A DNA stretch of 64,000 bases from Gammaproteobacteria bacterium. GTDB taxonomy: Bacteria > Pseudomonadota > Gammaproteobacteria > SZUA-229. The stretch lies in the NCBI GenBank assembly GCA_024636785.1, contig JAGXGK010000025.1:19476-83475 (forward strand), in the 5' to 3' direction. Positions 6,567-63,622 of this stretch are shown here, piece by piece. Position 1 is the stretch's first letter, and each line of letters starts with the position of its first letter. A program made the position numbers and the translations under genes. A model generated the notes under the pieces. The model made no database searches and was not told the DNA's origin. It was given only the letters and a program-made list of their open reading frames with translations.

Positions 6567-6578
6567 TATTAGTTTCGA

Positions 6579-11423: not shown

Positions 11424-11579
11424 TAGAAGCTTACTGGAAGTGACACAGGGGGAAAAGCTAAATGTAAAATTTAGTCTCTAGTTTGCAGTAGGCGGTTACA
11501 TTCTCAAATTTTTGTGGCTATAATCGGTAGCCAATTGAGACGAACAACAATAAATTTTTTTTTAATACTGGAGTACTAC

Positions 11580-41288: not shown

Positions 41289-43073
<1,785 letters not shown>

Positions 43074-43169
43074 TCAATAATTTATTAGTTGTTAATATAG
43101 ATGCGTTATTAATACTTTTTGAGGTGCATTTAGAGTTGAAGAGTCTGTTCGATAGTTGGAGGAATTTTT

Positions 43170-43183
43170 ATGACCTAGATCAT
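43170..43183. promoter_or_regulatory. weak FNR/DNR-like palindrome upstream of nirS copy 1
   Basis: ATGAC-CTAG-ATCAT keeps the TGA-N6-TCA core but matches only 7/10 of consensus. It lies ~145 nt upstream of the ATG. Confidence 0.3.
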
Positions 43184-43260
43184 GTAAGCCTGAATTACCT
43201 GCATTAAGAGGTACTAAAATAATAGCTGGTTTGGTAATTGTTAATTAGAGTGAGTACAGT

Positions 43261-43302
43261 TGTTATTTGTTATTTGTTATTTGTTATTTGTTATTTGCTG
43301 TT
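43261..43302. repeat. heptanucleotide tandem repeat (TGTTATT)x5 plus one degenerate unit
   Basis: Read directly from the sequence. The stop codon of the NosR/NirI-like gene lies inside the array. Confidence 0.95.
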
Positions 43303-44820
43303 TGTGGAGGCAACTGTTTCTTTTAATGTTTTGCGTTTTTCCTGTCGTTTGCGTTTATCCACCAATGGCGGACACTTTTTGTCATTCCAGTAAGTAACCT
43401 GACAATCCAGGCAGTAATGGCATTCCTGACTGATGATTTCGCCGGTTAAACGAATCGCGCCGACTTCACATTCTGTCCGGCAGGTCTGGCAGGGGCGGCC
43501 ACATTCCTTGCGTCGGCGTAACCAGTCAAAGATTTTAAATTTTGAAGGGAAGGTGAGGGCGGCACCCAGTGGACAGAGATAACGACAGTAAAATTTCCGG
43601 TTCCATATTGAAATAAGGATGAGGCCGGCGGCGTAAACCACGTAGCCCCATTCACGTTGAAAATGTAATGTAACGGCGGTTTTGAAAGGCTCGATTTCGG
43701 AGAACACTTCGGCCTGCGCCAGTGACTGCAACGACAGGCCGAAAAGGCCCAGCATGATTAGGTATTTAATTGCCCACAGGCGTTCGTGCACGACAACGGG
43801 GAATTCGTAAGAGCGGATGCCGAGCTTCTCTCCCAGTTTGTAGACGATTTCCTGAATGGCGCCGAAAGGACAAAGCCAGCCACAATAGACGCCACGACCC
43901 CACAGCAATATGGTCATGGCTACGAAGGTCCAGAGGATAAACATCATCGGGTCAATCATGAAGGTTTCCCAGCTGAAGCCGTGTATCACCGAACTGGTAA
44001 AAGTCAGTACATTGACGATGGAAAGCTGTGCGAGAGAATACCAGCCGATAAAAATGACGGTATAAACCAGATAGCCGTAACGCAAATATATGAGCAGTGA
44101 TGGATGATGAGCCAGCCAGTCCTGGAAAATAAGAATGAAAAGCAGCAAGGACAGCCCTATTAACAGCACGATGATCTGGAACGTTTTATCGCGCCAGGCA
44201 TAAACCCAGATAGGCTCCTCTGCTTCAAGATCGGCCGTGTGCTGTGTGGCTCCCTCTCCGATCAATCCACGTGATATGGCGATTTTCCGTAACGGCTTCA
44301 TGATGGTGGCATTCAGCACCATAGCGGTAATGGTGGCGCCGGATATGCCGTCCAGAGTGACGTAGCCTTCACGTCCACTGCCACCCAGCTGGACACGGTT
44401 ACCGGCATTCAGGCCCAAATACTGGTTTTTGAAATCCGACAGATCCTGTTCGGAAACGCCAGCCAGTAAAATCGGCTCCTGATGTTTGACAATTTCAACA
44501 CCGGTGATTTTCCCGCTTAAATCAAAACCGACCAGAGTATGAATCGGTTTGCCCGAATAGGCCGGTATGGGCATGACATGATCAGTGAAAAACACATAAC
44601 CCAGCAAGCGTTTACCCTGATAAACCGCTGCCGATTCGGGTTCCCCCTCAAATGGCCCCAAATTGTCAGCAGCGGGGAAAAATTGCAGAGCAAAAGGCGT
44701 AGCTTCCGCTACCGGGTTGTTTTTAGTGAAGGTGTTTGCGTCGGCCGTTCCGAATAGAAGGCATGATATTACGACAATACACACCAGGTAACTTCGGCAG
44801 GGTTGAGTGTTCATGAACAT
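43291..44820 (-). CDS. short NosR/NirI-family membrane FMN/Fe-S protein
   Basis: Periplasmic FMN-bind-like GISGATIT, 5-6 TM helices, CX3CP motifs (CGWLCP, CRYLCP) and C-terminal Cys clusters CGRPCQTCRTEC and CHYCLDCQ. Confidence 0.75.
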   Translation of the reverse strand: MFMNTQPCRSYLVCIVVISCLLFGTADANTFTKNNPVAEATPFALQFFPAADNLGPFEGEPESAAVYQGKRLLGYVFFTDHVMPIPAYSGKPIHTLVGFDLSGKITGVEIVKHQEPILLAGVSEQDLSDFKNQYLGLNAGNRVQLGGSGREGYVTLDGISGATITAMVLNATIMKPLRKIAISRGLIGEGATQHTADLEAEEPIWVYAWRDKTFQIIVLLIGLSLLLFILIFQDWLAHHPSLLIYLRYGYLVYTVIFIGWYSLAQLSIVNVLTFTSSVIHGFSWETFMIDPMMFILWTFVAMTILLWGRGVYCGWLCPFGAIQEIVYKLGEKLGIRSYEFPVVVHERLWAIKYLIMLGLFGLSLQSLAQAEVFSEIEPFKTAVTLHFQREWGYVVYAAGLILISIWNRKFYCRYLCPLGAALTFPSKFKIFDWLRRRKECGRPCQTCRTECEVGAIRLTGEIISQECHYCLDCQVTYWNDKKCPPLVDKRKRQEKRKTLKETVASTNSK

Positions 44821-44882
44821 AGGGATTCGTTGAACTTTCTTATCAGGGTCTATAAATCATAAGATTATCAGAGTGTAAATAA

Positions 44883-45209
44883 TTAAGCGGATATCATAGC
44901 TGTAGACCATATTGGCCAGAAGCTGCCAAGCAATAATGCACCGGCAACAGTGCATAAAATGCCCATTCGTAGCTTCTGGGAATACATGAGCAGTAAGCCA
45001 CCATACATAAGCCATCCCCAGGGGGTTAGCAGTGACATCAGCAGTCCCAGAGGGTAAGTGATTATCATTGTTTCCATATCGAGAATCTTGTCTGATGGTA
45101 GCAGCTGTTTAAAACCATACCAAATGGCAAGAGAAAGCAGGAAAGCCAGCACAGGGCCTAAAATCAGCCAGGCTGTTGTTATTTTTATTTTGTCGTATAT
45201 CATAAGCAT
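44883..45209 (-). CDS. hypothetical membrane protein
   Basis: 108 aa with three or four hydrophobic helices. No family recognised. Confidence 0.4.
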   Translation of the reverse strand: MLMIYDKIKITTAWLILGPVLAFLLSLAIWYGFKQLLPSDKILDMETMIITYPLGLLMSLLTPWGWLMYGGLLLMYSQKLRMGILCTVAGALLLGSFWPIWSTAMISA

Positions 45210-45497
45210 CTTCAGTTTGAAGCAGTCAGAAAAGTTAAATAAAAATATTCATTAAATGCCGGTATTTATGCTCTAAATCAACTCGTTTTTTATCAAGCTG
45301 CTGCAAAATAATGGTGTGGATTAATGAGTGGAGCTTAGCATGAACCTTATTATACTTAGGGATTTTAAAGTAACTTTCATCGGATATGAGAAATGAAGCT
45401 AAAATTTCATAGTTACAGACTATAATAACTTAATATTGTATGGTGTAGGCGGTGAAGTCACTCCGGTAGTCATACCGCTTTTTACAAGAGATTTTTA

Positions 45498-46064
45498 ATG
45501 AATCAAAATACAACTATGTTCGGTGTTTCACTAGTTCTCCTCACGCTCATCGTGGCGGTCATATTGGGTTTCATGACGGGGCCAACCAGCCCTCTAACCT
45601 GGTTGCTACTGGCAATATTGATTGCGGTTCCGTTTTTGTACCGGAAAATTGCGGCCAAAGATTTTCTCGAATGGAAGGGTTCATACAGTGTCGGTATTGA
45701 TTCCATCGATCAGCAGCACAGAAGATTAGTCAATCTGATTAACCAGTTACAGACAGCGGTGAAGTACTCCACCGGTGAAGAGTTTGAGCGCGAAGCACTG
45801 GATGAACTGGTGGACTACACCAGAACCCACTTTAAGTACGAAGAAAAGCTGATGGAGCAGAATGATTATCCTGACTTCGAACAGCACAAAGCGCAGCACG
45901 AAATGATGATCAAAAAGGTAAAGCAGGTGCTGGCCGAGTACGAACATGAACCCGAGACGGCCATGAACAATGCCGTTAGCTTTCTCAAAGGATGGCTAAT
46001 CAACCACATCAATGGTACCGACCAGCAGTACAGTCGCTACCTGATTGATAAAGGCGTGAAGTAA
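45498..46064 (+). CDS. membrane-anchored bacteriohemerythrin
   Basis: Two N-terminal TM helices followed by the hemerythrin ligand pattern (IDQQHRRLVNLIN, HFKYEEKLM, HKAQHEMMI, WLINHINGTD). Confidence 0.85.
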   Translation: MNQNTTMFGVSLVLLTLIVAVILGFMTGPTSPLTWLLLAILIAVPFLYRKIAAKDFLEWKGSYSVGIDSIDQQHRRLVNLINQLQTAVKYSTGEEFEREALDELVDYTRTHFKYEEKLMEQNDYPDFEQHKAQHEMMIKKVKQVLAEYEHEPETAMNNAVSFLKGWLINHINGTDQQYSRYLIDKGVK

Positions 46065-46101
46065 ATATAGTCAGGCTCGCATTTAGCAACAGGTTGCGCA
46101 A

Positions 46102-46485
46102 GTGAAAATACTTTTTCTGTTGGTGGTGCTGACGCAAAATGGCGCCGGTGATATCAACGTTTCGTTTGTAAATACCGACTCTCACGAGCAATGCCGGCAA
46201 AAAATATCAATGGTGGAAAATATTTTTTCCGCCGCAAATATCCCGATTATCGAAAGCCGTTGCCTGCAAAGTGATCTCAGCTTCTCCGAATTTGATCATG
46301 CCTCTTCCTCCCGCATGATCAAAAATTTTTATCTGATTCATCTGGACCGGGATACACTACAAATAAAATCTATGCCAGACTGGCGCAGCTGTAAACATCT
46401 GGAGAAAACAGCGGCCGGTCAGGGTAAAACATATTGCAGCAGTTCTGTGCAATCTCTTATTCCTGTTAGCTCTCATAATAAATAA
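46102..46485 (+). CDS. hypothetical secreted protein
   Basis: 127 aa with a hydrophobic N-terminus. No family recognised. Confidence 0.4.
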   Translation: MKILFLLVVLTQNGAGDINVSFVNTDSHEQCRQKISMVENIFSAANIPIIESRCLQSDLSFSEFDHASSSRMIKNFYLIHLDRDTLQIKSMPDWRSCKHLEKTAAGQGKTYCSSSVQSLIPVSSHNK

Positions 46486-46540
46486 TATTTCTCTCTTACC
46501 AGTCAGGACTTTTTCTGCGTTTATTCTTTAGGTATTTAGT

Positions 46541-47452
46541 ATGCGAGTTAAGCTGTTATTGCGTTACACCAACGTCGCCATTATTGTTCTGGTCAGCTGT
46601 GTTGTCGCTAGGGCCACGGCGGCTGCACAGTCGCCGATAAACTTTGCTGAAATCAGGGAGTTTGCCATTTTGGCCAATGCTGCCTATCAGCCGCTGCTAA
46701 AAATTCGCACGCTCAGCGCATTAAAAAAATACCTGCTTTCTCATTACAGCAACATCCCTGAAATTGAAATTTCATATTTCCTGATCACCGATGATGTTGC
46801 CAAAACTCAGATTATTGTCGTACGTGGAACCTCCAATGTTGAAAATGCAATGGTCAATGCAGCGCTCAAATTGACTCTGGACAGTCACCTGGGCGTGCGC
46901 CTGCATAATGGTTTTTCACGATCGGCACGAGCCATTTACACAGAAATAAGGCCGCTGTTAAAAACCGATTATGCCATCAGCGTCACCGGTCACAGTCTGG
47001 GCGGTGCTGTCGCCCTGATTCTAGCTATGCATCTGGACGTTGATGATTTTACGGTTGGAAAAGTAGTTACTTTTGGTCAGCCCAAGGTTACAAATATAGC
47101 CGGCACGGATGCATTTAAGCATCTCGATGTCATTCGAGTAGTGACGCCAAAAGATATGGTGCCTCTGGTGCCCCCATTTGATCCTGTAGATTTATACGAT
47201 CTGGATATTTACTGGCATTCGGGTAGAGAGATAATCCTCCTGGCTGACGCCACGTATGCGCTGCTGGAGGGTGTCAACAGCCTGCTGCGCGCCACCCGAT
47301 TCACGCAGGAGCCGCTTAATGATAAAAATTTACAGGAGCATCAAATGACGCTGTATATGCTGTTGCTGGACAAAAAAATCCCTGCGGCCAGTTTGGTGTC
47401 GTACACAAACAGCTTCAACCTGTTTAACCTGTTTGGTGCCGAAGAAAAGTAG
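46541..47452 (+). CDS. class 3 lipase family protein
   Basis: Signal peptide and nucleophile elbow VTGHSLGGAVA, with upstream IIVVRGTSN. Confidence 0.75.
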   Translation: MRVKLLLRYTNVAIIVLVSCVVARATAAAQSPINFAEIREFAILANAAYQPLLKIRTLSALKKYLLSHYSNIPEIEISYFLITDDVAKTQIIVVRGTSNVENAMVNAALKLTLDSHLGVRLHNGFSRSARAIYTEIRPLLKTDYAISVTGHSLGGAVALILAMHLDVDDFTVGKVVTFGQPKVTNIAGTDAFKHLDVIRVVTPKDMVPLVPPFDPVDLYDLDIYWHSGREIILLADATYALLEGVNSLLRATRFTQEPLNDKNLQEHQMTLYMLLLDKKIPAASLVSYTNSFNLFNLFGAEEK

Positions 47453-47453
47453 C

Positions 47454-47533
47454 TAAGAGGCTGACGGATTTAGGATGAATTGGCTGCTCTTCCACTCCCT
47501 CTCTTTAATTCCCCTAAACCCGACAGCCTCCCA
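47454..47533. repeat. palindromic intergenic repeat element, copy C (80 bp)
   Basis: Sequence runs TAAGAGGCTGACGGATTTAGGATGAATTGG...TAATTCCCCTAAACCCGACAGCCTCCC. Homologous to the copies at 7691 and 11344. Confidence 0.85.
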
Positions 47534-47770
47534 GGTAACATATAAAACGCTGAAGCGGCGTATGTGTAGTGAGCCTTCCAGCTGTCGACTCAACAAAAAC
47601 CCGGCATGAGGTACATTACGTTATGTCTCCAGACAACTCCAATAAAAATAAAAACTCAAAAATAACCCGCGAAAGACAAAAAAGACGTCAAAAATCCTTT
47701 TAAGTTGTTTTTTTAATTTTTCGCAGATAGAGCTTTCGCTTTTGTCAGAGGTTCTCAGCGGTGAATAATC

Positions 47771-49360
47771 TTAGTGGCTGGTGCCTTCCAGATATCGGGT
47801 TTTGTTGTAGACATTGTATTTGCCCGAGGGTTTGTTCATTGGCAGGCGCTTGATTTCTTCGAGGCTGTTGGCGTCGTAAACAATCACTGCGCCGTCGGTA
47901 TCCCAGATGCTGAGCAGGGCGTATTTGCCGTCGCGGGTGAACTCGACGTGAGCGGCGGTTTTGCCGGGGGCGGGGCGCAGGGTTTTGACGATTTCCAGGG
48001 TGCTTTTGTCGATTACATGCACGGCATCTTTATTCGGGCCGAAGAAAACATCAACCCAGGCGTAGGGACTGTTTTTATGGCTGCGCATGAAGAAGCCGGG
48101 TCCGAGGGTTTCGATGTTTTTGATGGTTTTCCAGCTTTCCATATCGATGACGCTGACGTTATTAGCTTTCAGGTTGGGCGTGGCCAGCACGGTGCGGCCC
48201 TGATATTCCCAGGTAATGCCGGAGCCGAGGTGGGGCATGCCGGGCAGCGCCAGATCAGGCACGATGACGCGACCGACATCCAGATTGACCACCTGACCCT
48301 TGCCTTCGCGCGAGGCACCGATCAGGTTCACGTAGTCCTGGTCGAAGAAAAAATCATCCAGATAATCGCTGACTTCGATTTTTCTTACCGGGAAGGGATC
48401 CGGCGTGATTTTCTCGCCGGAATCTTCGCGGTAATCGTGTACCCAGAAACCAAAGCCGGCAGGCGGATTATCATCGTAGGAGATTTCCCACAGTTCGGGG
48501 ATATCCTTTAAGGCGGCGATGAAACTGTTGCGTGGTGGTGCGGTATAGACGGCGCTGACGCGGGAAGTTTTGCCGGTATGGTCTTTGGCTTCGAACAATT
48601 TGATCGGGCTTAGGTCTTTGGCATCGAGCAGTACCAGAGTGTGCGGCAGGTAATTGGCGACCATGACATAGCGACCATCAGCAGAGACCGCCTGATTACG
48701 GGTGTTGATGCCGGCACGGATTTCGGCGACCAGTTTCAGGTTGTAAATATCGTATTTGCTGATCCAGCCATCGCGTGAGGCAAAGTAGACGAAGCGGCCG
48801 TCCGGTGAATATTTGGGGCCGCCGTGCAGGGCAAAGCGCGACTTGAAGCGGTGGATGGGTTCCAGTTTATCGCCATCGAGCAGGGTGACGTGGTGGTCGC
48901 CCAGCTCAACCACCAGAAACAGGTTCAGCAGATCGGCGACTTCAAACACGGGCTTGTCGGAGAGTTCGCTTGCTTTGTTATGAATGATCTGGCTGGCTCT
49001 GATTTCAGCCATGCCCCACACCGGCATCTGTTCCAGCGGTGTATAGATATAGTCAACCAGTGACCGGGTTTCTGTCTCGGAAAGCTTTTCCCTGAAGGCC
49101 GGCATCTGGGTGGCGACGCGGCCATTGGTAATCACTGTAGCCGCGTCTTTCATTTTCAGTCGTTTAAGATTTTCCGGCAGCAGTGCAGGCCCCATGCCGC
49201 CAAGGCGATGTTCATTGTGACATTCAGCACAATGATCCCGATAGAGTTGCTGTGTCTTGTTGACAGTCTTAGCCTCGGCCGATTCAGCCTGTGCCGGAGC
49301 CGAAAGTGTTGTTGCCAGCAGGCAGAAAGTGCAGAGCGTAAAAAAGGTTTTGTGGTTCAT
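47771..49360 (-). CDS. nirN: NirN-like cytochrome cd1-family protein
   Basis: 529 aa. Signal peptide, CAECHN haem c domain, cd1-type propeller and C-terminal KPSGKYNVYNKTRY. No other nirN candidate in the window. Confidence 0.65.
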   Translation of the reverse strand: MNHKTFFTLCTFCLLATTLSAPAQAESAEAKTVNKTQQLYRDHCAECHNEHRLGGMGPALLPENLKRLKMKDAATVITNGRVATQMPAFREKLSETETRSLVDYIYTPLEQMPVWGMAEIRASQIIHNKASELSDKPVFEVADLLNLFLVVELGDHHVTLLDGDKLEPIHRFKSRFALHGGPKYSPDGRFVYFASRDGWISKYDIYNLKLVAEIRAGINTRNQAVSADGRYVMVANYLPHTLVLLDAKDLSPIKLFEAKDHTGKTSRVSAVYTAPPRNSFIAALKDIPELWEISYDDNPPAGFGFWVHDYREDSGEKITPDPFPVRKIEVSDYLDDFFFDQDYVNLIGASREGKGQVVNLDVGRVIVPDLALPGMPHLGSGITWEYQGRTVLATPNLKANNVSVIDMESWKTIKNIETLGPGFFMRSHKNSPYAWVDVFFGPNKDAVHVIDKSTLEIVKTLRPAPGKTAAHVEFTRDGKYALLSIWDTDGAVIVYDANSLEEIKRLPMNKPSGKYNVYNKTRYLEGTSH

Positions 49361-49386
49361 GAAAGTTATTTTCTATAAAAATATGA

Positions 49387-49716
49387 TTAATCGACAACGT
49401 GGACTGTGCCCGTCATTTTCGGATGCGGGCCACAACGGTAGGGAAAGGAGCCGGTCTGTTTGAAGGTGCGCTCGTAGGTGTCGTCGGGGAACAGATAATC
49501 AGCCGGCTCTTCCTCCCCCAGCGCCTCAAACCAGACGCTGTGGTACTGGCGCTTTTCATGATTCTCCCAGCGTACGGTCTGGCCGCGTTTGATGGTGATT
49601 TCCTGAGGAATGAATTTGTATTCTTCAAGGACTACCAGCGGTGTTTCATCAGTTGCCATCGCTGCGCTCAGGCTGAGTGTCGAGATAAAGATCAGTAACA
49701 ATGACTGCCATTTCAT
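49387..49716 (-). CDS. amicyanin/plastocyanin-like type-1 cupredoxin
   Basis: Signal peptide. Type-1 Cu ligands are H in QYHSVWF and CGPHPKM (C-x2-H-x2-M). Confidence 0.8.
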   Translation of the reverse strand: MKWQSLLLIFISTLSLSAAMATDETPLVVLEEYKFIPQEITIKRGQTVRWENHEKRQYHSVWFEALGEEEPADYLFPDDTYERTFKQTGSFPYRCGPHPKMTGTVHVVD

Positions 49717-49772
49717 GATTTTGCCCTCTTATATGAATATGATTAGTCCCATCATAACCGAGGTCCGGCCCA

Positions 49773-49806
49773 CAAAAAAGGCCGCAGAGTTTATACCCGT
49801 GCGGCC
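49773..49806 (-). terminator. rho-independent terminator after the nirT-nirB-like gene
   Basis: GGCCGCA...TGCGGCC stem followed by T6 on the minus strand. Confidence 0.7.
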
Positions 49807-49825
49807 TGTATGGATAAAGCTCGGC

Positions 49826-51595
49826 TTATTTCCCTACGGCATTAATTTCCGCATCGTCATTATCAAAGCCCAGTATCAGCCCCAGTGAGACATGATGGAA
49901 ACGGCTGTTGCTGTAATCATCGTGTATGGCAAAACCGATGCTGTACATCTGGTCGGTGCTCATGCTGATGTCACCGGCTTTGTCCGAGCTGAGCTTACGG
50001 GTCATTTCAACCGTCCATACGCCATTTTCAAGGCTGCCGGTGAAATCCACTCCCTGACCGCCAGTCATGACGCGCTCGGCCAGAATGTAACCATCTTCAG
50101 ATTCACCTGTACCCGCTTTGTAGCGCAGCAGATCCATAAATGAACCATTTTCCAGCGCGGCCTGAATCTCGCCAGCCTCTTTCAATTTGTCCCAGCCGCC
50201 GCGTTTGGCATCATTTTTACCCTCGATCTCGATCTCGGTACGGCTCTCTTTAAGGTACTTGGTGAAGCCATTGCTGGAGTCGAGTCGACTGTCGGCCAGC
50301 GCTGACTGATCGGGCTGGTCAGGCATATCGTTGACATCGTGATGACAGCTTTGCCAGCAACCGGCACGCTCCGTGTATTCTACTTTGGGGTCGTCCTCAT
50401 TAATCGCCGCGAGCATAATTGCCAGCTTGATCGGATTTTTCGGATCCATCTTGCCGCCTTCTGCAAAAGGAATAGCTGCATGTTCACCGTCCGGCCACTG
50501 GAAGCGCATGTACAGATTTTCGCCATCGTGTTTGGCCTGCACGTTAACGTCAATGCTGCCGCGCTTGCCGGGAATAGGGGTAGGTTCGAGTTTCTCGCCG
50601 GAAACAATCAGTTTCCCGATACTCATTCCTTCACCTTCATGACAATCGAAGCAACGGTCACCGTATAAAAATCCACGTTTGCCGCCGTGGTCGCTGCCCT
50701 TGAGTACCCACTCCATAGAGGCCTGACCCGGATAAAAGAGGGTGACTTCTGCGGCTTCAATGCCTGACCAGTCGACACCCGTGACCGATTTTGTGCCGGT
50801 AGCGGCGGGTGCGGTATCAGCCTGACTTGAAGCTGGTGCTGCCAATTCGGTTTTGGCGGGCGTAGCATCCTCAGTTGTTTCAGTCTCAATAGCCGCCGCT
50901 GTTCCAGCCGGGTCATCTGTTGTGGTGACCAGCTTTTTATCGTTATCGATAAAAGCCTGCCACTGTGGCGCTATGGGGCGTTTGTTTTTTTCAACTGGTT
51001 TTGAAAGCTCTTCCAGCTCGCTTTCGCTCAACTGATCATGAACCTTGCTGTGCGCAATACCTTTGTGGCAATCGATGCAGGTATTGCCCCTTTCCATGGC
51101 GCCGGCATGCTGCCTACGCGAACGTTTCTTTTGATCTTCCGGCTTCATCGAATCGAAATTGTGGCAGTTTCGGCATTCGCGTGAATCTGTCTCCTTCATC
51201 GAACGCCAGACATTTTTGGCCAGGAATAAACGCTTGGCATTGAATTTTTCCGGGGTGTCGATGGTACCAAGCACCTTATGCAGGACCTCGTTACTGGCCT
51301 TTATTTTGCGCACGACTTTGTGCACCCAGGGGTCGGGTACATGGCAGTCTGAGCAGGTGGCGCGCACGCCACTACGGTTGGTGTAATGAATGGTTTTTTT
51401 GTATTCCTGATAAACATTCTCTTCCATCTCATGACAGGAGATGCAGAATTCCAGGGTATTGGTGACTTCCATGGCGGTATTGAAACCACCCCAGAAGATG
51501 ACACCGACAATCATGAAAAACAGGGCCGCGCCCAGTGTGGTTCCCATCAGGACCTTGCGCGACATTAAACCGAATTTCCTAGATGTATTAGTCAT
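49826..51595 (-). CDS. nirT: NirT (NapC/NirT tetrahaem) fused to a C-terminal NirB/EB_dh-like haem domain
   Basis: The N-terminal ~190 aa are highly similar to NapC at 18307 and carry four CXXCH motifs. An Ala/Thr/Pro-rich linker follows. The C-terminal ~330 aa carry CFDCH and CWQSCH (CX3CH). Confidence 0.75.
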   Translation of the reverse strand: MTNTSRKFGLMSRKVLMGTTLGAALFFMIVGVIFWGGFNTAMEVTNTLEFCISCHEMEENVYQEYKKTIHYTNRSGVRATCSDCHVPDPWVHKVVRKIKASNEVLHKVLGTIDTPEKFNAKRLFLAKNVWRSMKETDSRECRNCHNFDSMKPEDQKKRSRRQHAGAMERGNTCIDCHKGIAHSKVHDQLSESELEELSKPVEKNKRPIAPQWQAFIDNDKKLVTTTDDPAGTAAAIETETTEDATPAKTELAAPASSQADTAPAATGTKSVTGVDWSGIEAAEVTLFYPGQASMEWVLKGSDHGGKRGFLYGDRCFDCHEGEGMSIGKLIVSGEKLEPTPIPGKRGSIDVNVQAKHDGENLYMRFQWPDGEHAAIPFAEGGKMDPKNPIKLAIMLAAINEDDPKVEYTERAGCWQSCHHDVNDMPDQPDQSALADSRLDSSNGFTKYLKESRTEIEIEGKNDAKRGGWDKLKEAGEIQAALENGSFMDLLRYKAGTGESEDGYILAERVMTGGQGVDFTGSLENGVWTVEMTRKLSSDKAGDISMSTDQMYSIGFAIHDDYSNSRFHHVSLGLILGFDNDDAEINAVGK

Positions 51596-51690
51596 GGTTA
51601 GAGCTCACTTAGTTTTATTATGGTGTATTAAAAAAGTAACCTTGTTATAAAGTTACTTGTGTAATACGTGTCCTAATCTGTTTAGAAGCA

Positions 51691-51718
51691 GGGCGGACAT
51701 ACATGTTGTAGTCCGCCC
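51691..51718 (-). other. GC-rich hairpin between nirS copy 2 and nirT
   Basis: GGGCGGAC...GTCCGCCC stem. The U-tract on the minus strand is poor, so it may be an attenuator or stabiliser rather than a strong terminator. Confidence 0.5.
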
Positions 51719-51743
51719 CATTTCATTTATGTCGTAACTTTTA

Positions 51744-53408
51744 TTAAGTTACATGGTTAACGCGGTTATACACGTTGAACTTACCTGTTGGAGCGTAAAG
51801 TCCTTTAATACGTGCTTTTTCTTCCAGTGTTTTAGCATCAAAGATGATGATTTCACCGTTAGGTTTCAGACTGTCTGAACGATTCCATACAGATGCCCAT
51901 ACTTCGGTGCCATCTTTGTTGAACTCGAAGTGAACGGCTGCGTAGCCCTTTTTATCAGTTAGCTGAATAGTCTTAACAATCTTACGAGTTTTCTTGTCAA
52001 GAACTTTAACTGACTGCTGGATAGCAGGTTCAGGGTGTTTAGTCTGGTCTATCCAGACGTAATCACTCTTGGGATGGGTGCGCAGGAACACGCCTGCACC
52101 GTCGGTGTCAACGGTGTAGCAGAGTTTCCAGGCCTGATCTTTATGACCTTTTGGATCATTGCCCCAGACTGAGACTTTGCCCACGCCAAGATGCGTTGTA
52201 CCTGCTACAGGACCACACTTGTCATCGTTCCAGTTTGCACCAGGACCTGGGTGAGGTTTGCTGGCAACATCGATCATTGCTTCTAGCTTGCGATCCACGG
52301 TATCGATGACTACCATCTTGTCAGAAGCGTTAGCCGCGATCTGGAAGTAACGGCCTGTTGGGTCGAAGAAGCCATCATGCAGGTACTTGGCAGAATCGAT
52401 TTCGGTGATCTGCAGGTTATCAAGATCACTGTAATCAACCTGCCACATCTGACCTAATTCCTTCGCAGCCACTAACCAGGTAGGAGCCAACGGTGTGTCA
52501 TAGATCGCAGCAACACGTGACTCGTTAACATACTCACCATCAACGTTAACACCACGAGTAGAAACGACTTTCAGAGGTTCCATGGTTTTAGCATCAGCGA
52601 TAACGAAGTGGGGAGGCCAGTAACCGCCACCGATAACGTACTTGCCATCACCTGATACGGCAACGTCACGTGCGTCATAAGCAACCTGTACCTGAGCGAC
52701 TTTCATCTTGTCAGGGTTAGCCCATAGATCGATTTTAGTCATCATGCCATCACGACCCATGATGTACCAGAAACGGCCAGCGTCTTTAGCATGCAGGGTT
52801 TGATGATGTTCGACTGTTTTCAGTACGTGTACTGCATATCCGGTAGAAATGTGGGCAAGCACTTCTTTTTTATCACCGTCGATGATAGCGATCGAACCTT
52901 TATCACGTTCGATAGCGATGAAAAAATTCTCCCAGTTACGGCCATGCATTGGCTTGCTAGGATAATCTTTTGGTTCTATATAAACCTTCCAGCGTTCTTT
53001 CATTAATGCCAGAGACATTTCGGGTGGTACTGGGGGCTCCATCTGGATATACCGGGCCAGCAGGTTTATTTCCTCTTTGCTGAAGATATCATCAAAGTTG
53101 TTCATGCCGCCTTCGGTACCGAGGGTAATAATTCGCTCCAGACGTTTTGTGCCCAGTTTGAGAGTGCCTTTGGTGTTTTTGGCTTTATTGGGTTTTGGTT
53201 CCAGGTTTTTACCCGTGGCACCGACGCGTAAAACACCATGACAACCGGCACAACGCTGGAAGTACATGCTCTTTGCGGTTTCAAATTCAGCCTCGTTAAG
53301 AGGTACGAATTCATCTTTTTTGGCGAAGGCTACACCCGAAGATGCGGCCATGCCCACGCATGCGGCAACGAGTGCTGCACCGTATTTTAACTTATGTTTC
53401 GTGCTCAT
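51744..53408 (-). CDS. nirS: cytochrome cd1 nitrite reductase NirS (copy 2)
   Basis: 554 aa. Signal peptide, CAGCHG, d1 propeller and C-terminal TGKFNVYNRVNHVT. Its codon usage is distinct from neighbouring genes. Confidence 0.93.
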   Translation of the reverse strand: MSTKHKLKYGAALVAACVGMAASSGVAFAKKDEFVPLNEAEFETAKSMYFQRCAGCHGVLRVGATGKNLEPKPNKAKNTKGTLKLGTKRLERIITLGTEGGMNNFDDIFSKEEINLLARYIQMEPPVPPEMSLALMKERWKVYIEPKDYPSKPMHGRNWENFFIAIERDKGSIAIIDGDKKEVLAHISTGYAVHVLKTVEHHQTLHAKDAGRFWYIMGRDGMMTKIDLWANPDKMKVAQVQVAYDARDVAVSGDGKYVIGGGYWPPHFVIADAKTMEPLKVVSTRGVNVDGEYVNESRVAAIYDTPLAPTWLVAAKELGQMWQVDYSDLDNLQITEIDSAKYLHDGFFDPTGRYFQIAANASDKMVVIDTVDRKLEAMIDVASKPHPGPGANWNDDKCGPVAGTTHLGVGKVSVWGNDPKGHKDQAWKLCYTVDTDGAGVFLRTHPKSDYVWIDQTKHPEPAIQQSVKVLDKKTRKIVKTIQLTDKKGYAAVHFEFNKDGTEVWASVWNRSDSLKPNGEIIIFDAKTLEEKARIKGLYAPTGKFNVYNRVNHVT

Positions 53409-56865: not shown

Positions 56866-57344
56866 ATAAAAAATTGGCAAGAAACGGAAAATCGGCTTGT
56901 GCGACTTCAATGAAGCGAGGGATTCAATATTAATACATGATAGGACGCTTAATAATAAATAAGGAGGGTTACATCGAAGATTAATAATTACAAAGATCAG
57001 CTTATAGGTGACACTAGTATCTTTCTATTCAAAACGGTTGTTAATTACTGATTGACATAAATCTGAGTAAAGTGCTTAATATTCGCAAATATTAGGCATA
57101 CGGAATGTCGAGGGAGTTTCTGGATAAGTATTAATAATTACTCTCCTCCAATGTAATGATCTTCGCTATCCGGCTTTTAACGGCCAAATATTACAAAAGA
57201 TAATTCCCTTGACACTAAGTTGTTTAGTGGTTTTTTTGATTCGATAACCAGTGTGATTATCGATCAAACATTGCTGATATATCGCACCAAATGCATTGAT
57301 AAATAATAAAACTACAGTTTACGAACGAAAAAAGGATATAAAAA

Positions 57345-58286
57345 ATGACAATTACAAAAATAATACCACTTTTCTATTTCCTACTCATAAGTGGATGCTC
57401 CACTGGCACGATGGAAGTTATTAACAAGCCTGATTCGCAGCCACAAGTTAGCAAATCAATTATCTCAGAAGACGTTAAAGGCCTAAAAAGAAAGGTCGCA
57501 ATTGCTCGCTTTAGCAATGAGACTAAACATGGTAATTCATTTCTTTTAGACGAAAATAACGACCGTATTGGTAAGCAGGCAAGCGATATTCTTGCCGCCC
57601 GTTTGACTGAATCGGGTAAGTTTTTGATGTTTGAGCGACAGGACCTAAATAAAATTAAAGCCGAGCAGGATTTGGCAAACATCACGACAAAAACTGTTGG
57701 CGCAGATTTTCTTATCATCGGCTCTGTTTCAGAGTTTGGACGTACCACCGTAAGTGAGGTCGGCATCTTTAGTCGTAACAAGAAACAAAAAGCAAATGCT
57801 ACTGTAAATGTACGTCTGGTAGATGTAAAAAGTGGACAAATTATTTTTTCACAAGAAGGTAGCGGTGAAGCTCTATCAGAGGCTAATCGGGTATTCGGCG
57901 TTGGTGAATCGGCAGGCTATGACTCTAAATTAGATGATGAAGCATTATCAGCAGCTATTTCTAAATTAGTCAGTAACCTGATCGAGAATCTTCTTGATAG
58001 GCCCTGGTTGGCATATATTCTTGATGTGCAACAGGATCAGATCATTATATCAGGCGGAAAGTCACAGGGCCTTACTCAAGGAGATGAATTAAGAGTCATG
58101 AAAAGCGGGCGGAAAGTGAAGAATCCACAAACAGGTCTGGAAATTGAATTGCCAAGAGAAGAGATTGCAAAGATAAAAGTGATGTCTTTTGCAGGTGAGG
58201 GCAATAATGAAGTTGCTATTTGCAGGCTGTCTTCAGGAAAGATTGCTGGTTTAAAAACCAGCCAACTAATTGTTCAGGAGTTTTGA
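57345..58286 (+). CDS. CsgG/HfaB-family outer-membrane lipoprotein with extra C-terminal beta domain
   Basis: Lipobox LLISGC. KVAIARFSNETK and ADFLIIGSVSEFG blocks are typical of CsgG-like proteins. A ~90-aa C-terminal extension is present. Confidence 0.7.
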   Translation: MTITKIIPLFYFLLISGCSTGTMEVINKPDSQPQVSKSIISEDVKGLKRKVAIARFSNETKHGNSFLLDENNDRIGKQASDILAARLTESGKFLMFERQDLNKIKAEQDLANITTKTVGADFLIIGSVSEFGRTTVSEVGIFSRNKKQKANATVNVRLVDVKSGQIIFSQEGSGEALSEANRVFGVGESAGYDSKLDDEALSAAISKLVSNLIENLLDRPWLAYILDVQQDQIIISGGKSQGLTQGDELRVMKSGRKVKNPQTGLEIELPREEIAKIKVMSFAGEGNNEVAICRLSSGKIAGLKTSQLIVQEF

Positions 58287-58287
58287 G

Positions 58288-58614
58288 ATGATGTATATGA
58301 GAAACATATTGTTGATTATCGGTGCTCTATTTTTGCTGGTAGGGTGTGGCACATATAGTCAATCAGTGCAGGTAGATGATAACGCCTACCTACTATTGAT
58401 TGGTGATCCTACTGGCCATATAGTAACAATTGATACAGGTCAGCCAATTAAACTTAGCAATGAAACAACGTCGTTCAACCTAAATGGAAAAACAGCTACA
58501 AAAATACAGGTTCCAACTGGAACACATAGCGTAAAAATCATAAAAGACGGAGTTCTTGTCATTAACAGAAAATTTTACGTATCAACTGGGACATCATTCG
58601 AGGTGCAATTATGA
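58288..58614 (+). CDS. small lipoprotein (beta-rich, unknown family)
   Basis: Lipobox FLLVGC. CAGGAG lies upstream of ATG 58288. 4-nt overlap with the next gene. Confidence 0.6.
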   Translation: MMYMRNILLIIGALFLLVGCGTYSQSVQVDDNAYLLLIGDPTGHIVTIDTGQPIKLSNETTSFNLNGKTATKIQVPTGTHSVKIIKDGVLVINRKFYVSTGTSFEVQL

Positions 58615-58964
58615 AAAAGTTACCATTCTATGTTCTGATGTTATTTATTTTTAGCGGCTGCGCGACTGTTAGTCAATCTAATCTTTATTGGGGAGATTAT
58701 TCACATACTCTCTATAACGTAAAAAAGAATCCTGGAGAAGCCTCTAATGCAGAACATGAGAAAGAGCTTCATCATATTGTCGAGAAATCAAAATCTATGA
58801 ATCTGAGAGTCCCACCCGGAATTTATGCTGAGCTTGGTATGTACGCAAAGGAACGGGGAGAGAACAGCGCTGCCAATAATTACTTTGCACTTGAACTGGC
58901 AACATATCCCGAAGGAGAGGCTTTAATAAAGCGTGCTCTTAAAAACAAATCAAGCGATTCATAA
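58611..58964 (+). CDS. DUF4810-type lipoprotein
   Basis: Lipobox FIFSGC. LYWGDYSHTLY and ELATYPE blocks. Conserved partner of DUF799 (family name recalled from memory). Confidence 0.6.
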   Translation: MKKLPFYVLMLFIFSGCATVSQSNLYWGDYSHTLYNVKKNPGEASNAEHEKELHHIVEKSKSMNLRVPPGIYAELGMYAKERGENSAANNYFALELATYPEGEALIKRALKNKSSDS

Positions 58965-58976
58965 GAGGCATAACCA

Positions 58977-59648
58977 ATGAAAGCTAAGTTACTAATTCTA
59001 AGTACGATTGTTCTGTTTAATACTGGCTGCATGATGCAAACGACAACCAAATCTGAAGCATTTACAGAGATGTATAATGAGAAACCTGTTTCGGTTTTAG
59101 TCATCCCTGCGATCAATCAAAGCACCGCCGCTGATGCACCGATACTGTATTCATCAACAATCAATGAGCCACTGTCCAATGCAGGATATTATGTCTTGCC
59201 AATGGAATTAACTGATCGTTTTTTACGTAACGAAGGCCTATCCGAAGGAGAGGTTCTGAAAGATGTACCAGCGCAGAAATTTGCGCAATTCTTTGGTGCG
59301 GATGCAGTTCTTTACGTAACTATTGAGAAATGGGACACTAATTACTATGTAATCGGGGGCAACGTTACTGTTGGTGCACATTTTCAAATGAAATCATGCA
59401 AAACAGGTGAGACTCTATGGGCATACAGAAACGAAATGGTTTTAGACACCAGCGGCAACAATAACAATGGCGGGGGCTTGCTCGCTGCTTTGATCAGTAC
59501 TGCTATCGCCACGGCTACACAGGATTATGTCCCAGTTGCACGTAACGTCAACGTTCTATCATTGCAAGCTATACCTTTTGGAAAATATCATAAATTACAT
59601 GGCAAAGATCAGGCTGTAGCCATAGATGCGAGCAAAGTAACAAAATAG
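58977..59648 (+). CDS. DUF799 (GNA1162-like) lipoprotein
   Basis: Lipobox LFNTGC. VLVIPAINQSTAADAP...PLSNAGYYVLPMELTDRFLRNEG is typical of DUF799. Confidence 0.7.
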   Translation: MKAKLLILSTIVLFNTGCMMQTTTKSEAFTEMYNEKPVSVLVIPAINQSTAADAPILYSSTINEPLSNAGYYVLPMELTDRFLRNEGLSEGEVLKDVPAQKFAQFFGADAVLYVTIEKWDTNYYVIGGNVTVGAHFQMKSCKTGETLWAYRNEMVLDTSGNNNNGGGLLAALISTAIATATQDYVPVARNVNVLSLQAIPFGKYHKLHGKDQAVAIDASKVTK

Positions 59649-59709: not shown

Positions 59710-60056
59710 ATGATTAATGTGCTCAACAGGGTAGGTTTTTTCGCAATTACTTTATTATCAACCAATAGTGTAGTTGCTGATCACGTAGAGGGCAGTAATT
59801 ATATAGGCGTACAATATGCAAAGACTGCATATAATAATGACGGCGCATAAGATGAAACTAATCTAGTTGCATTAGTTGGTCGCATGGGCGTTAATGTTAC
59901 TAACGGTTTTCTATTGAAAGAAGGTTAGGTCTAGGCTTACAGGATGATACTGTAAGCATACTTGGTTCTAATGAGAAAATAGAAGTTGAGTCACTTGTTG
60001 GTGTATCTGCCTCAGCGCATATGAATGTTATTAGAAAACTTGCTGTAATTTCATAA
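59710..60056 (+). pseudogene. decayed outer-membrane beta-barrel protein gene
   Basis: Signal peptide followed by YIGVQYAKTAYNNDGA, then an in-frame TAA at 59848. It continues DETNLVALVGRMGVNVTNGF and needs a +1 shift to read RLGLGLQDDTVSILGSNEKIEVESLVGVSASAH. The terminal aromatic residue is missing. Confidence 0.7.
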
Positions 60057-60129
60057 TATGTTTCACAAGTCGCTAAGGTTCTAAAAACATTCTTAATAAT
60101 GCTTCTATCTTCATTTCAATTCCTAATGC

Positions 60130-60156
60130 AAAAAAAGCCCCGGCATAGACCGGGGC
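60130..60156 (-). terminator. rho-independent terminator after the porin gene
   Basis: GCCCCGG...CCGGGGC stem followed by T7 on the minus strand. Confidence 0.8.
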
Positions 60157-60215
60157 AAAAGGAAGAATTAGAGTTGTTATGTTTATTAGCAACTGATGAC
60201 TTAGAAGCGCTCGCT

Positions 60216-61608: not shown

Positions 61609-62040
61609 TTATGGTTTTATCAGTGTGTAGCCTTCTTCGACTAAATCAATGATGCGCACAACACCGGCTGGCACCGGTTTGGCAGCAGCGTGTAATGTTG
61701 GTGTGTGCCCTAATATTTTGGTCATAGACGCAATGGTGTTTTCGCAGGCAGAGAACGTGACATTGTTGGTTATCAGGCCATCAATGCGTTGACTGTTTGC
61801 ATTCTTTTCAAATAAGAGTCGTAAGCCGGGGCCGAAAGCCACAATTTCAACGGCTACTTTATTCTGGCCATAATGTTTTATCAGGTTGTTGGCAACATTG
61901 AGTACCAGCGTTTGTTTGAAAGGATCGTTGTCGCTAATTTGCAATACGATCTTCTTCTCAGCAAAATCGTTTGCGGCATGCACAGGAAATATGAATGCCA
62001 TCGCTGCCAGCATTATCAGTGATTTATAAAATTTTCTCAT
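61609..62040 (-). CDS. secreted DsrE/DsrF-like (COG1416-type) protein
   Basis: Signal peptide. KKIVLQISDNDP..., VTFSACENTI (conserved Cys) and EEGYTLIKP are typical of the DsrE-like fold family. Confidence 0.65.
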   Translation of the reverse strand: MRKFYKSLIMLAAMAFIFPVHAANDFAEKKIVLQISDNDPFKQTLVLNVANNLIKHYGQNKVAVEIVAFGPGLRLLFEKNANSQRIDGLITNNVTFSACENTIASMTKILGHTPTLHAAAKPVPAGVVRIIDLVEEGYTLIKP

Positions 62041-62339: not shown

Positions 62340-62888
62340 TTGAAAAAAGTTACAAATATGCTGGCTGCGTTCTCGCTGAAATCGGAATTCGCGGCGCGAC
62401 GTAATAAACTGTATCGCATCGCTTATTCATGGTGTCATAGCTCCGCCCTGGCAGACGATTTGGCTCAGGAAACGATTTATAAAGCGATGAAAAATGCCGC
62501 CGGCCTGCGTGACCCTGGCACTATTGATACCTGGTTGTATCGAATATTGTTCAATTGCTGGCAGGATTATTTAAGGGTTAAAAACCGAAATGTTGAATTT
62601 GTTGAAATGCACGACGAGGTACAGGCTGAGCATGCTGAAAGTTATCAGCAATCTCAGATCGTCAATCGTGTGCGCTCAGCAATCGAATTATTACCTATGC
62701 CGCTACGGGAAGTGGTGACACTGGCAGATTTTGCGGGATTAAGTTATGCGGAAATTGCTGAGATCATCGATGTACCAATAGGCACAGTCATGAGTCGGTT
62801 ATTCCGGGCACGAAAAAATCTAAAGCAGCAGTTGCTGGACTTCGGTGTAGATGAGCTTTCCGGCTGCAAGTTGCGGAGTATTAAGTAA
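62340..62888 (+). CDS. ECF-type RNA polymerase sigma factor
   Basis: Region 2 is DDLAQETIYKAMKN...WLYRILFNC. Region 4 is LSYAEIAEIIDVPIGTVMSRLFRARKNL. TTG start with an upstream GGGAG. Confidence 0.85.
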   Translation: MKKVTNMLAAFSLKSEFAARRNKLYRIAYSWCHSSALADDLAQETIYKAMKNAAGLRDPGTIDTWLYRILFNCWQDYLRVKNRNVEFVEMHDEVQAEHAESYQQSQIVNRVRSAIELLPMPLREVVTLADFAGLSYAEIAEIIDVPIGTVMSRLFRARKNLKQQLLDFGVDELSGCKLRSIK

Positions 62889-63622
62889 TGAGTGTTAATG
62901 AAATTACGGAAGAAAAATTAAATTTATTTGTCGACAAGCAACTCGATGCTGATGAGATGAATGAAATTCATCAGTTGTTGCTGGATGACAAGGTATTGCG
63001 TGAGCGTGTCTGTCAGCTAAAAGCAGTACGTGAGCTGGTCGGTTACGCCTACAGTGAAGTGCCACCTTCACGCTATGAGAAGGTCGGGGTAAAAAGTTCG
63101 CGCTCAATTTATGCAAAAGCGATGGCGGCCTCGGTAACGCTGGCTATAGGGGTGTTATTAGGCTGGGGAACTTACCAGTATAGCCCCGGCGCAAAAGGAA
63201 TTATCTCTGCTGAAAATACTTTTCAATATGTAGCTAATCAGGCAAGCGTGGATCATACGCAACGCAAAATTGTGCTGCATATCGATTCGGGCGATGTGCA
63301 GGTGGTAAATGCCGCCTTAACTGAAGCTGATCAGTTACTGGCGACTTATCGCAAAGCCAATACGCCAATGAAACTGGATATTGTCACTAATAAATCAGGT
63401 ATTAATGTTTTAAGGCCGGGTGTATCGCCTTATATAGAGCGTTTACAAAAAATGGCCGCTGACGGTAATGTATCGTTTTTTGCCTGCAAGCAATCTATTG
63501 CTAAAGCCCATAACATTGAAGGTGTTGAAATTGTTTTGATGCCCGGTGTGGTGGTTGACAGAACGGCCGCAGACATAATTCCACAGCGCCTCAAAAAGGG
63601 CTGGGTGTATATAAAAGCCTAA
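62888..63622 (+). CDS. anti-sigma factor with periplasmic DsrE-like domain
   Basis: Start overlaps the sigma stop (TAATG). N-terminal anti-sigma helix region, one TM helix (AASVTLAIGVLLGWG) and a C-terminal domain homologous to the 143-aa protein at 61609. Confidence 0.7.
   Translation: MSVNEITEEKLNLFVDKQLDADEMNEIHQLLLDDKVLRERVCQLKAVRELVGYAYSEVPPSRYEKVGVKSSRSIYAKAMAASVTLAIGVLLGWGTYQYSPGAKGIISAENTFQYVANQASVDHTQRKIVLHIDSGDVQVVNAALTEADQLLATYRKANTPMKLDIVTNKSGINVLRPGVSPYIERLQKMAADGNVSFFACKQSIAKAHNIEGVEIVLMPGVVVDRTAADIIPQRLKKGWVYIKA

Follow-up and report, generated by a model that had tools for sequence, protein, structure and literature searches.

A horizontally mobile operon of four lipoproteins around a CsgG-family protein, with a possible role as an outer membrane-anchored ring complex

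Introduction

What is the role of a CsgG-family lipoprotein that is encoded together with three further lipoproteins, but next to no gene for a cargo? This question is raised by an operon of four genes at positions 57345-59648 (forward strand) of a 64,000-nucleotide stretch of DNA, called the window in the following, which was taken from contig JAGXGK010000025.1 (positions 19,476 to 83,475; assembly GCA_024636785.1) of a gammaproteobacterium affiliated with SZUA-229. The operon is intact, and its four-gene form represents a distinct and strictly conserved architecture which is found in several phyla as a self-contained, horizontally mobile module. The products are tentatively proposed here to constitute a ring complex anchored in the outer membrane, which may serve a surface matrix encoded elsewhere in the host; as weighed below, this proposal falls somewhat short of an even chance.

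Clusters coding for CsgG-family, DUF4810, and GNA1162 lipoproteins occur very commonly among Gram-negative bacteria; in Neisseria and Acinetobacter, for example, the proteins are known as abundant vesicle antigens and for a link to biofilm formation. The four-gene form moves between phyla as a unit without any linked cargo, and its first protein combines CsgG-specific elements with a second domain resembling that of FlgT, traits which give rise to a concrete structural hypothesis. The main interest lies in this operon family rather than in the copy of the window, which is an ordinary member of a widespread operon type, with three of the four proteins already named in RefSeq.

Organization of the operon

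The four genes and the spacer preceding them are arranged as follows.

56866-57344, forward strand: AT-rich upstream spacer of 479 bp, presumed promoter or regulatory region
57345-58286, forward strand: gene of protein 1, 313 amino acids; CsgG-family lipoprotein, lipobox LLISGC with Ser at position +2
58288-58614, forward strand: gene of protein 2, 108 amino acids when started at ATG; beta-sandwich lipoprotein, lipobox FLLVGC
58611-58964, forward strand: gene of protein 3, 117 amino acids; DUF4810 lipoprotein, lipobox FIFSGC
58977-59648, forward strand: gene of protein 4, 223 amino acids; GNA1162-like (DUF799) lipoprotein, lipobox LFNTGC

An initial annotation of the window had described four tightly packed lipobox genes with gaps or overlaps of at most 12 nt, which agrees with the coordinates of the open reading frames (ORFs) and with the lipoboxes, all of which were found as quoted. 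The junctions consist of a 1-nt gap, a 4-nt overlap between the stop of gene 2 and the start of gene 3, and a 12-nt gap. Gene 2 carries its Shine-Dalgarno sequence, AGGAG, within the 3' end of gene 1, and has an alternative TTG start at 58270, which would yield a protein of 114 amino acids. Each of the four proteins opens with a signal peptide and a lipobox Cys, the box of protein 4 being atypical by its Asn at position -3. According to the Lol sorting rule, lipoproteins lacking Asp at position +2 are directed to the outer membrane. Since this residue is absent from all four proteins, as it is from most of their homologues, outer-membrane sorting is expected for the entire set.

Promoter-like hexamers are no more common in the 479-bp spacer than in shuffled sequence, no Rfam family matches the spacer, no motif common to it and the upstream regions of relatives was found, and a search for a forward-strand terminator after gene 4 gave none.

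Conservation of the four-gene form

Database searches retrieved 2,740 relatives of protein 1 at E<1e-5, and the best 120 of these are nearly all full-length proteins of about 313 amino acids. Synteny was evaluated in the best 80 loci, with relatives being present in 404 species (one genome scanned per species). The 80 loci are distributed over at least nine bacterial phyla or classes, with representatives from Gammaproteobacteria, Bacteriovoracaceae, Nitrospirota, Desulfobacterota, Ignavibacteriota, Bacteroidota, Campylobacterota, Magnetococcales, Calditrichota, and Spirochaetota. Genes 1 to 4 are present in 80, 78, 76, and 74 of them, respectively, with an invariant order on a common strand, and most of the loci missing a module gene are located at contig ends. 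The genes are thus syntenic rather than scattered in other genomes. Many loci also share the 4-nt overlap of genes 2 and 3, which suggests that the two proteins are co-translated in fixed proportions.

No other neighbour is conserved to a similar extent. As judged from all-against-all clustering, the most frequent neighbouring family occurs in at most 11 of the 80 loci, and in a Pfam census of the directly adjoining genes, the top counts are 4 of 70 on the downstream side (OMP_b-brl) and 4 of 71 on the upstream side (response regulators). Neither the clustering nor the census, the latter covering up to 71 loci, revealed a conserved linked cargo or partner gene. The genes flanking the operon in the window, moaA, moeA, the porin gene, and the sigma factor gene, do not adjoin it in any other locus surveyed.

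Base composition and mobility

The initial annotation had regarded the operon as an AT-rich block acquired by horizontal transfer, on the basis of composition judged by eye. The G+C contents at third codon positions (GC3) of genes 1 to 4 are 0.341, 0.339, 0.322, and 0.375, compared to a window mean of 0.545 (standard deviation 0.095; 62 ORFs), and are the lowest of the window save for one other ORF. The overall G+C content of the operon is 0.401, compared to 0.508 upstream and 0.461 downstream, and that of the upstream spacer is 0.326. The only other ORF as AT-rich as the operon genes (11514-12236, forward strand; GC3 0.353) codes for a lipoprotein-like product with the motif LMTGC, a helical region rich in Ala, and a C-terminus resembling LysM, which did not match any Pfam family at E<=1e-4.

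The same shift recurs in other genomes. Of the 50 loci with usable flanks, 24 show an operon whose GC content is lower than that of the flanks by 3 points or more, and in 10 the difference amounts to 8 points or more, while an excess of more than 3 points is not seen in any. Protein 1 shares 52-53% identity with homologues from Nitrospirota, Ignavibacteriota, and Desulfobacterota, compared to 50-53% with those from Colwellia and Shewanella. Moreover, the complete four-gene module is carried by the plasmids pLA5 (Novosphingobium) and pPNAP04 (Polaromonas), and adjoins an IS5 transposase gene in the latter. Because its context varies, plasmid copies exist, identities across phyla are as high as those within the class, and the AT shift is recurrent, the operon is regarded as a self-contained, horizontally mobile module, as had been supposed. 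The window itself contains neither tRNA genes nor an integrase marking an island, and no convincing direct or inverted repeats flank the operon. A PADLOC scan for anti-phage defence gave no matches.

Some of the records encountered deserve separate mention. On pLA5 (locus L084), a plasmid of an alphaproteobacterium, the CsgG-like protein encoded at 5857-6810 carries a signal peptide without a lipobox Cys, and the module adjoins an outer-membrane beta-barrel gene and sugar genes of the lipopolysaccharide/capsule type (glycosyltransferases, kdsA, kpsF, kdsB). A three-gene lipoprotein cluster is present in two records labelled 'Acinetobacter phage MD-2021a' (locus L085, CAKLQH020000025.1, and hit H27), and the PHROG families 17898, 17414, and 18664, to which proteins 1, 3, and 4 are matched, may derive from mislabelled records of this kind. 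As the cluster of the one record examined, L085, is located between the housekeeping genes paaJ and aroP, these records look like bacterial contigs; a phage origin of the operon was rejected, both the PHROG matches and the two records being ascribed to the three-gene cluster on what are most likely bacterial contigs. Finally, a 2.7-kb contig of a metagenome-assembled genome labelled 'archaeon' (locus L065, DAOVNB010000181.1) contains a CsgG-like gene (50% identity), a homologue of gene 2, and a DUF4810 gene. The archaeal label is probably a binning artefact, a transfer into archaea being less likely.

Protein 1: a CsgG core with a second domain

The assignment of the first protein as CsgG/HfaB-like is confirmed by its match to Pfam CsgG (PF03783; E=2.1e-34; 119.1 bits at a cut-off of 20.8), which spans residues 47-218 and corresponds to profile positions 8-199 of 210. 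The two motifs quoted for it in the initial annotation, KVAIARFSNETK and FLIIGSVSEFG, are both present in the sequence. In the AlphaFold2 (AF2) model of the protein (mean predicted local distance difference test score, pLDDT, of 72), an alpha/beta core whose long strands span residues 122-139, 143-160, and 166-183 is followed by an all-beta domain at residues 222-312. This C-terminal part (residues 219-313), noted before as an extra beta domain of about 90 amino acids, is present in every full-length relative. A search with this domain in 1.84 billion representative proteins yielded 164 clusters, nearly all of which consist of proteins of about 300-340 amino acids with the domain at the C-terminus; it is therefore essentially specific to the architecture of protein 1.

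The core invites the assumption that protein 1 forms a true CsgG-type (type VIII-like) pore exporting an unfolded protein cargo encoded elsewhere, with proteins 2-4 acting as gating or capping factors in the manner of CsgE and CsgF. Apart from the strong Pfam match, this would agree with a loop at about residues 57-76 which has the length of the CsgG constriction loop and is aligned to it without gaps by hhalign, and with the retention of two hairpins at the positions of the transmembrane (TM) hairpins of CsgG; simpler relatives of the fold are devoid of these features. Loop and hairpin segments are among the best conserved parts of the family (0.80-0.84 vs. 0.73 overall), hairpin 1 and TM1 of E. 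coli CsgG are similarly composed, and the 18-residue strands of the AF2 model reach beyond the core. Moreover, HfaB provides an example of a CsgG homologue acting outside the curli system (see the summary in bioRxiv 10.1101/2021.05.19.444899). However, the protein fails the NCBIfam equivalog for curli CsgG (NF011731) with 19.6 bits at a cut-off of 505, and its hhalign alignment with E. coli CsgG (96% probability, E=1e-9) ends before the TM2 hairpin. Both hairpins are shorter than those of E. coli CsgG by 6 residues each, and hairpin 2 lacks a hydrophobic face, reaching a best alternating-face hydropathy of 0.8 compared to 2.5 for TM2 and containing fewer aromatic residues. The constriction residues Tyr/Asn/Phe of CsgG are replaced by Leu/Asn/Asn according to the hhalign mapping, with only the Asn being kept. 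As already stated in the initial annotation, the genetic context does not indicate a curli or holdfast system either: csgE, csgF, csgA, csgB, hfaA, or hfaD genes are absent within about 16 kb upstream and about 10 kb downstream of the operon, and csgA/B/E/F-like or hfaA/D-like genes were not encountered next to it when the neighbours in the 80 loci were surveyed. A pore of this kind is therefore considered rather unlikely, while still being the foremost competitor of the reading preferred below.

Structure comparison leads in another direction. With the full-length model, Foldseek ranks Vibrio FlgT (3W1E) and one chain of the LPHT ring (8Z5N), presumably also FlgT, highest in the PDB, both at E=1e-12 over 286-291 columns, whereas CsgG structures cover only the core (about E=1e-10, about 200 columns). 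FlgT ranks as the best full-length match because protein 1 possesses the conserved C-terminal beta domain. This raises the idea of an accessory of the flagellar basal body (H ring or disk), in which protein 1 would serve as a ring subunit in the manner of FlgT and its partner lipoproteins would resemble FlgO and FlgP. Both domains are covered by the structural matches, and the C-terminal tail of FlgP docking on FlgT recalls the conserved tail of protein 4 (see below). On the sequence level, however, all FlgT and FlgO scores stay below the Pfam thresholds (FlgT_C with the C-terminal domain alone, E=0.02; FlgT_M, E=0.024; FlgO weak). In addition, flagellar families are found neither among the conserved or most frequent neighbours of the 80 loci nor adjoining the operon in the window, and plasmids as well as many lineages harbour the module without a flagellar context, all of which renders a flagellar function highly improbable.

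Lower-ranking Foldseek matches of protein 1 comprise GNA1162, CT253, PelC, HpaA, LpoB, PqiC-like proteins, and LptE. The protein also exceeds the Pfam threshold of TolB_N (29.5 bits vs. 22.4) and lies exactly at that of LpoB (22.3 vs. 22.3). PDB searches with the single sequences of proteins 1, 2, and 3 returned nothing significant, profiles and folds being the only informative queries.

Proteins 2, 3, and 4

Protein 2 represents the extra gene product in comparison with the three-gene clusters and does not belong to any Pfam family above threshold, the nearest being PEGA (PF08308; 17.2 bits at a cut-off of 20.8). Its AF2 model (pLDDT 86.8) is all-beta and describes a small beta-sandwich of a fold similar to PEGA, immunoglobulin, or carbohydrate-binding module domains, and Foldseek yields generic sandwich matches only (best E=6e-4).

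The families named for the last two proteins in the initial annotation proved correct. Protein 3 matches DUF4810 (PF16068; E=3.4e-21; 76 bits at a cut-off of 34.7); it is helical and contains one conserved C-terminal motif similar to a tetratricopeptide repeat (TPR), VPPGIYAELG...A..YF..E...YPE. Its profile retrieves TPR proteins from the PDB, the best natural single-stretch match being the TPR of CpoB at E=1e-5. Protein 4 belongs to the GNA1162-like/DUF799 family (PF05643; E=5.1e-38; 130.9 bits at a cut-off of 25.9), matches the crystal structure of GNA1162 (PDB 4HRV) at E=1.1e-22, and shows an additional weak match to LpoB. It consists of an alpha/beta domain of the TolB-N/LpoB type, a Gly/Asn-rich linker, and a C-terminal tail, GLLA..I.TAI.TA..DYVP.AR..N...P.GKYH, which is highly conserved in the alignment of homologues.

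These similarities would also fit an envelope-homeostasis module which regulates or tethers peptidoglycan and the outer membrane in the manner of LpoB, TolB-N, and CpoB, any phenotypes concerning a surface matrix being indirect. The TolB_N and LpoB scores of protein 1, the weak LpoB match of protein 4, and the CpoB match of protein 3 all point this way, as do the pleiotropic phenotypes of a relative from Acinetobacter baumannii described below. Yet the matches go back to an alpha/beta fold and a TPR which are both of a generic kind, and protein 1 scores far better with CsgG than with any other family. Furthermore, the operon is accessory, patchy, mobile, and AT-rich, unlike core housekeeping genes, and peptidoglycan-synthesis genes are not enriched among its neighbours. 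A homeostatic function thus appears quite improbable.

Relation to the known three-gene clusters

A three-gene cluster consisting of genes for a CsgG homologue, a DUF4810-type lipoprotein, and a GNA1162 homologue has been studied in A. baumannii UPAB1, where it is repressed by a plasmid-borne H-NS and where its deletion lowers the levels of the exopolysaccharide PNAG, of Cup pili, and of biofilm; the cluster is widespread, and extra genes are present in some species (bioRxiv 10.1101/2021.05.19.444899). The homologues from Neisseria are abundant lipoproteins of outer-membrane vesicles (PMC10097807, PMC6168680). The CsgG-like proteins of Acinetobacter, Neisseria (NMB1126/NMB1164), Ralstonia, and Proteus represent a short form which matches residues 14-221 of protein 1 with 30-35% identity and lacks the C-terminal domain; the Acinetobacter locus L085 keeps the order of the remaining three genes but also lacks gene 2.

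No papers were found on DUF4810, those found on DUF799 and the NMB locus tags comprise antigen, vesicle, and expression lists only, and no paper describing the four-gene form was found. RefSeq labels the plasmid-borne copies as CsgG/HfaB family, hypothetical, DUF4810 domain-containing, and GNA1162 family proteins. The system had been characterized initially as conserved but functionally undescribed. The first part holds, as does the second for the four-gene form as far as the literature search goes; it does not extend to the three-gene relative, which has been studied in A. baumannii, or to the annotation of the proteins, which RefSeq already provides. The four-gene form should accordingly be regarded as a distinct variant of a known, poorly understood cluster type.

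Proposed function

Each of the four lipoproteins has a fold of the ring-forming or protein-binding type. As the operon contains neither an enzyme nor a linked substrate gene, its products are proposed to act as an accessory conduit or anchoring platform. The reading preferred here, which is put forward tentatively and with somewhat less than even confidence, is that of a hetero-oligomeric ring complex anchored in the outer membrane and serving a surface matrix encoded by the host. After export and lipidation, all four products would reach the outer membrane and there assemble into one complex facing the periplasm. Protein 1 may form a CsgG-type ring, since its structural relatives CsgG, PelC (dodecamers), and FlgT form rings. 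The conserved loop at about residues 57-76 would line the central lumen, the hairpins would point to the outer membrane or enter it, giving a barrel shorter and more polar than that of CsgG, and the FlgT_C-like C-terminal domain would constitute a periplasmic skirt. Protein 4, sharing the same class of alpha/beta fold, might dock via its conserved C-terminal tail, whereas protein 3 with its TPR-like motif and protein 2 with its beta-sandwich may act as adaptors. Such a complex could serve exopolysaccharides or fibre subunits whose genes lie elsewhere in the host, which would match the phenotype of the A. baumannii relative.

Several points weigh against this proposal. The models of the proteins are monomers, an interaction of the four proteins and an oligomerization of protein 1 being conjectural, and the model of protein 1 itself is of moderate confidence, as its pLDDT indicates. 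The shortened hairpins and the missing hydrophobic face of hairpin 2, together with a TM2 region left unaligned by hhalign, make a membrane insertion of protein 1 doubtful, and its best full-length structural match, FlgT, is not a pore. The phenotypes of A. baumannii are pleiotropic (bioRxiv 10.1101/2021.05.19.444899) and may reflect a general envelope defect, and the cluster of that species contains neither protein 2 nor the C-terminal domain of protein 1.

A more far-reaching version of the proposal would see the operon as coding for a so far unrecognized class of mobile outer-membrane nanomachine, in which a CsgG/FlgT hybrid ring and its three dedicated lipoprotein partners form a pore or gated platform for the export or anchoring of host-encoded surface polymers, that is, a plug-in 'type VIII-like' system moving across phyla without its cargo. 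This version is speculative and regarded as unlikely. The outer-membrane pore and the novel secretion machine suggested in the initial annotation are likewise to be taken as hypotheses.

The consequences would differ according to the nature of the ring. If protein 1 forms a pore, the concept of type VIII secretion would be broadened, and new nanopore scaffolds might become available. If the ring is not a pore, curli channels and flagellar H-ring proteins would appear as versions of one lipoprotein ring scaffold.

Genomic surroundings of the operon

The operon is preceded by moaA, moaB, and moeA and by a nir denitrification cluster, and followed by the genes for a Porin_O_P protein and an extracytoplasmic function (ECF) sigma factor. 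After the operon, the initial annotation had recognized a decayed outer-membrane protein (OMP) gene. This feature and the intact OMP_b-brl genes of four of the closest relatives, which follow the operon on the same strand, are located as follows.

59710-60057, forward strand: OMP remnant with a signal peptide and the N-terminal half of a barrel, interrupted by one in-frame stop and one frameshift (three-frame translation)
L003, 2947-3552, operon strand: intact OMP_b-brl gene
L005, 8683-9267, operon strand: intact OMP_b-brl gene
L007, 8084-8770, operon strand: intact OMP_b-brl gene
L027, 8644-9240, operon strand: intact OMP_b-brl gene

The stretch at 59710-60057 is probably the remnant of a small outer-membrane beta-barrel gene. 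The broken half barrel speaks for the earlier interpretation, whereas the match of the repaired translation to OMP_b-brl (E=0.007; 17 bits) stays below the cut-off of 28.7 and lends it little weight. Since similarity between the remnant translation and the intact OMP genes of the relatives is not detectable, their homology is positional only. The remnant is a lineage-specific accessory outside the core of the module. In two of these relatives, secreted proteins of about 100-111 amino acids with several Cys residues and no Pfam family, which are 57% identical to each other, are encoded between the operon and the OMP gene (L003:2632-2928, L005:8331-8663). A strong GC-rich hairpin with a T-run at 60137-60156 on the reverse strand represents the terminator of the porin gene; it also explains the candidate small RNAs at 60130-60186 (Rfam Hrs1, E=0.14; anti-hemB, E=0.84), which were rejected.

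Some features of the wider surroundings were recorded as well. The denitrification cluster (41289-53408, reverse strand) encodes three NirS-like paralogues of the cd1 type (Cytochrom_D1), a cupredoxin, a NosR-like protein with flavin mononucleotide and 4Fe-4S sites, and a protein in which a NirT/NapC-type cytochrome is fused to an EB_dh domain; hemerythrin and lipase genes are located within the same stretch on the opposite strand. The ECF sigma factor gene (62340-62888, forward strand) is followed by that of a putative anti-sigma protein of 244 amino acids (62888-63622, forward strand), and a secreted protein of 143 amino acids is encoded divergently just upstream of the sigma factor gene (61609-62040, reverse strand). 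As a hint at a sensing pair related to sulfur, the 244-aa and 143-aa proteins share the same weak DsrE/DsrF-like match (E=0.023). The region at 62-63 kb is also GC-poor (0.398).

Comparison with known systems

The closest described counterparts of the operon are the 'curli-like' cluster of A. baumannii UPAB1 (CsgG homologue D1G37_12595, Ab12600, Ab12605) and the lipoprotein cluster of Neisseria (NMB1124-1126, NMB1162-1164), which show the same order of CsgG, DUF4810, and GNA1162 genes on one strand. The Acinetobacter CsgG homologue is 35% identical to protein 1 over residues 12-221 and has similarly short hairpins. Its cluster is accessory like the operon of the window, whose AT-richness would fit a xenogeneic silencing like the H-NS repression seen there. 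The form found in the window differs from both by the gene for the beta-sandwich lipoprotein following the CsgG-like gene (78 of 80 loci), and from the Acinetobacter cluster by the C-terminal beta domain of about 95 amino acids in protein 1 (313 amino acids), whereas the Acinetobacter protein, one of the short forms of about 220 amino acids, ends just past the conserved Trp that corresponds to W221.

E. coli CsgG shares with protein 1 the Pfam family, the N-terminal lipidation site, a superposable core, a constriction-loop equivalent of equal length, and two beta-hairpins in corresponding places, which in CsgG are the transmembrane hairpins. It differs by a sequence identity of only about 24% and by the equivalog, hairpin-length, and amphipathicity features discussed above, as well as by a helix insertion of 14 amino acids which is absent from protein 1, while the additional C-terminal domain is confined to the latter. 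The curli system as a whole differs from the locus in the window, which is devoid of csgE, csgF, csgA, and csgB.

Vibrio FlgT (3W1E, 8Z5N) is built like protein 1, in that a C-terminal beta domain is joined to an alpha/beta domain of the TolB-N/CsgG class. Beneath the outer membrane, it assembles into a large ring, with 26 copies in the flagellar H ring, and is the docking site for the C-terminal tail of the lipoprotein FlgP. Protein 1 differs by its scores below the FlgT thresholds of Pfam, by the missing flagellar context, by being a lipoprotein, and by belonging to the CsgG family on the sequence level. PelC, PqiC, and LptE, finally, share the alpha/beta fold, and PelC and PqiC are rings beneath the outer membrane that serve export systems. 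In contrast to the four-gene operon, which has no such linked partner, these proteins are encoded alongside their partners PelB, PqiAB, and LptD.

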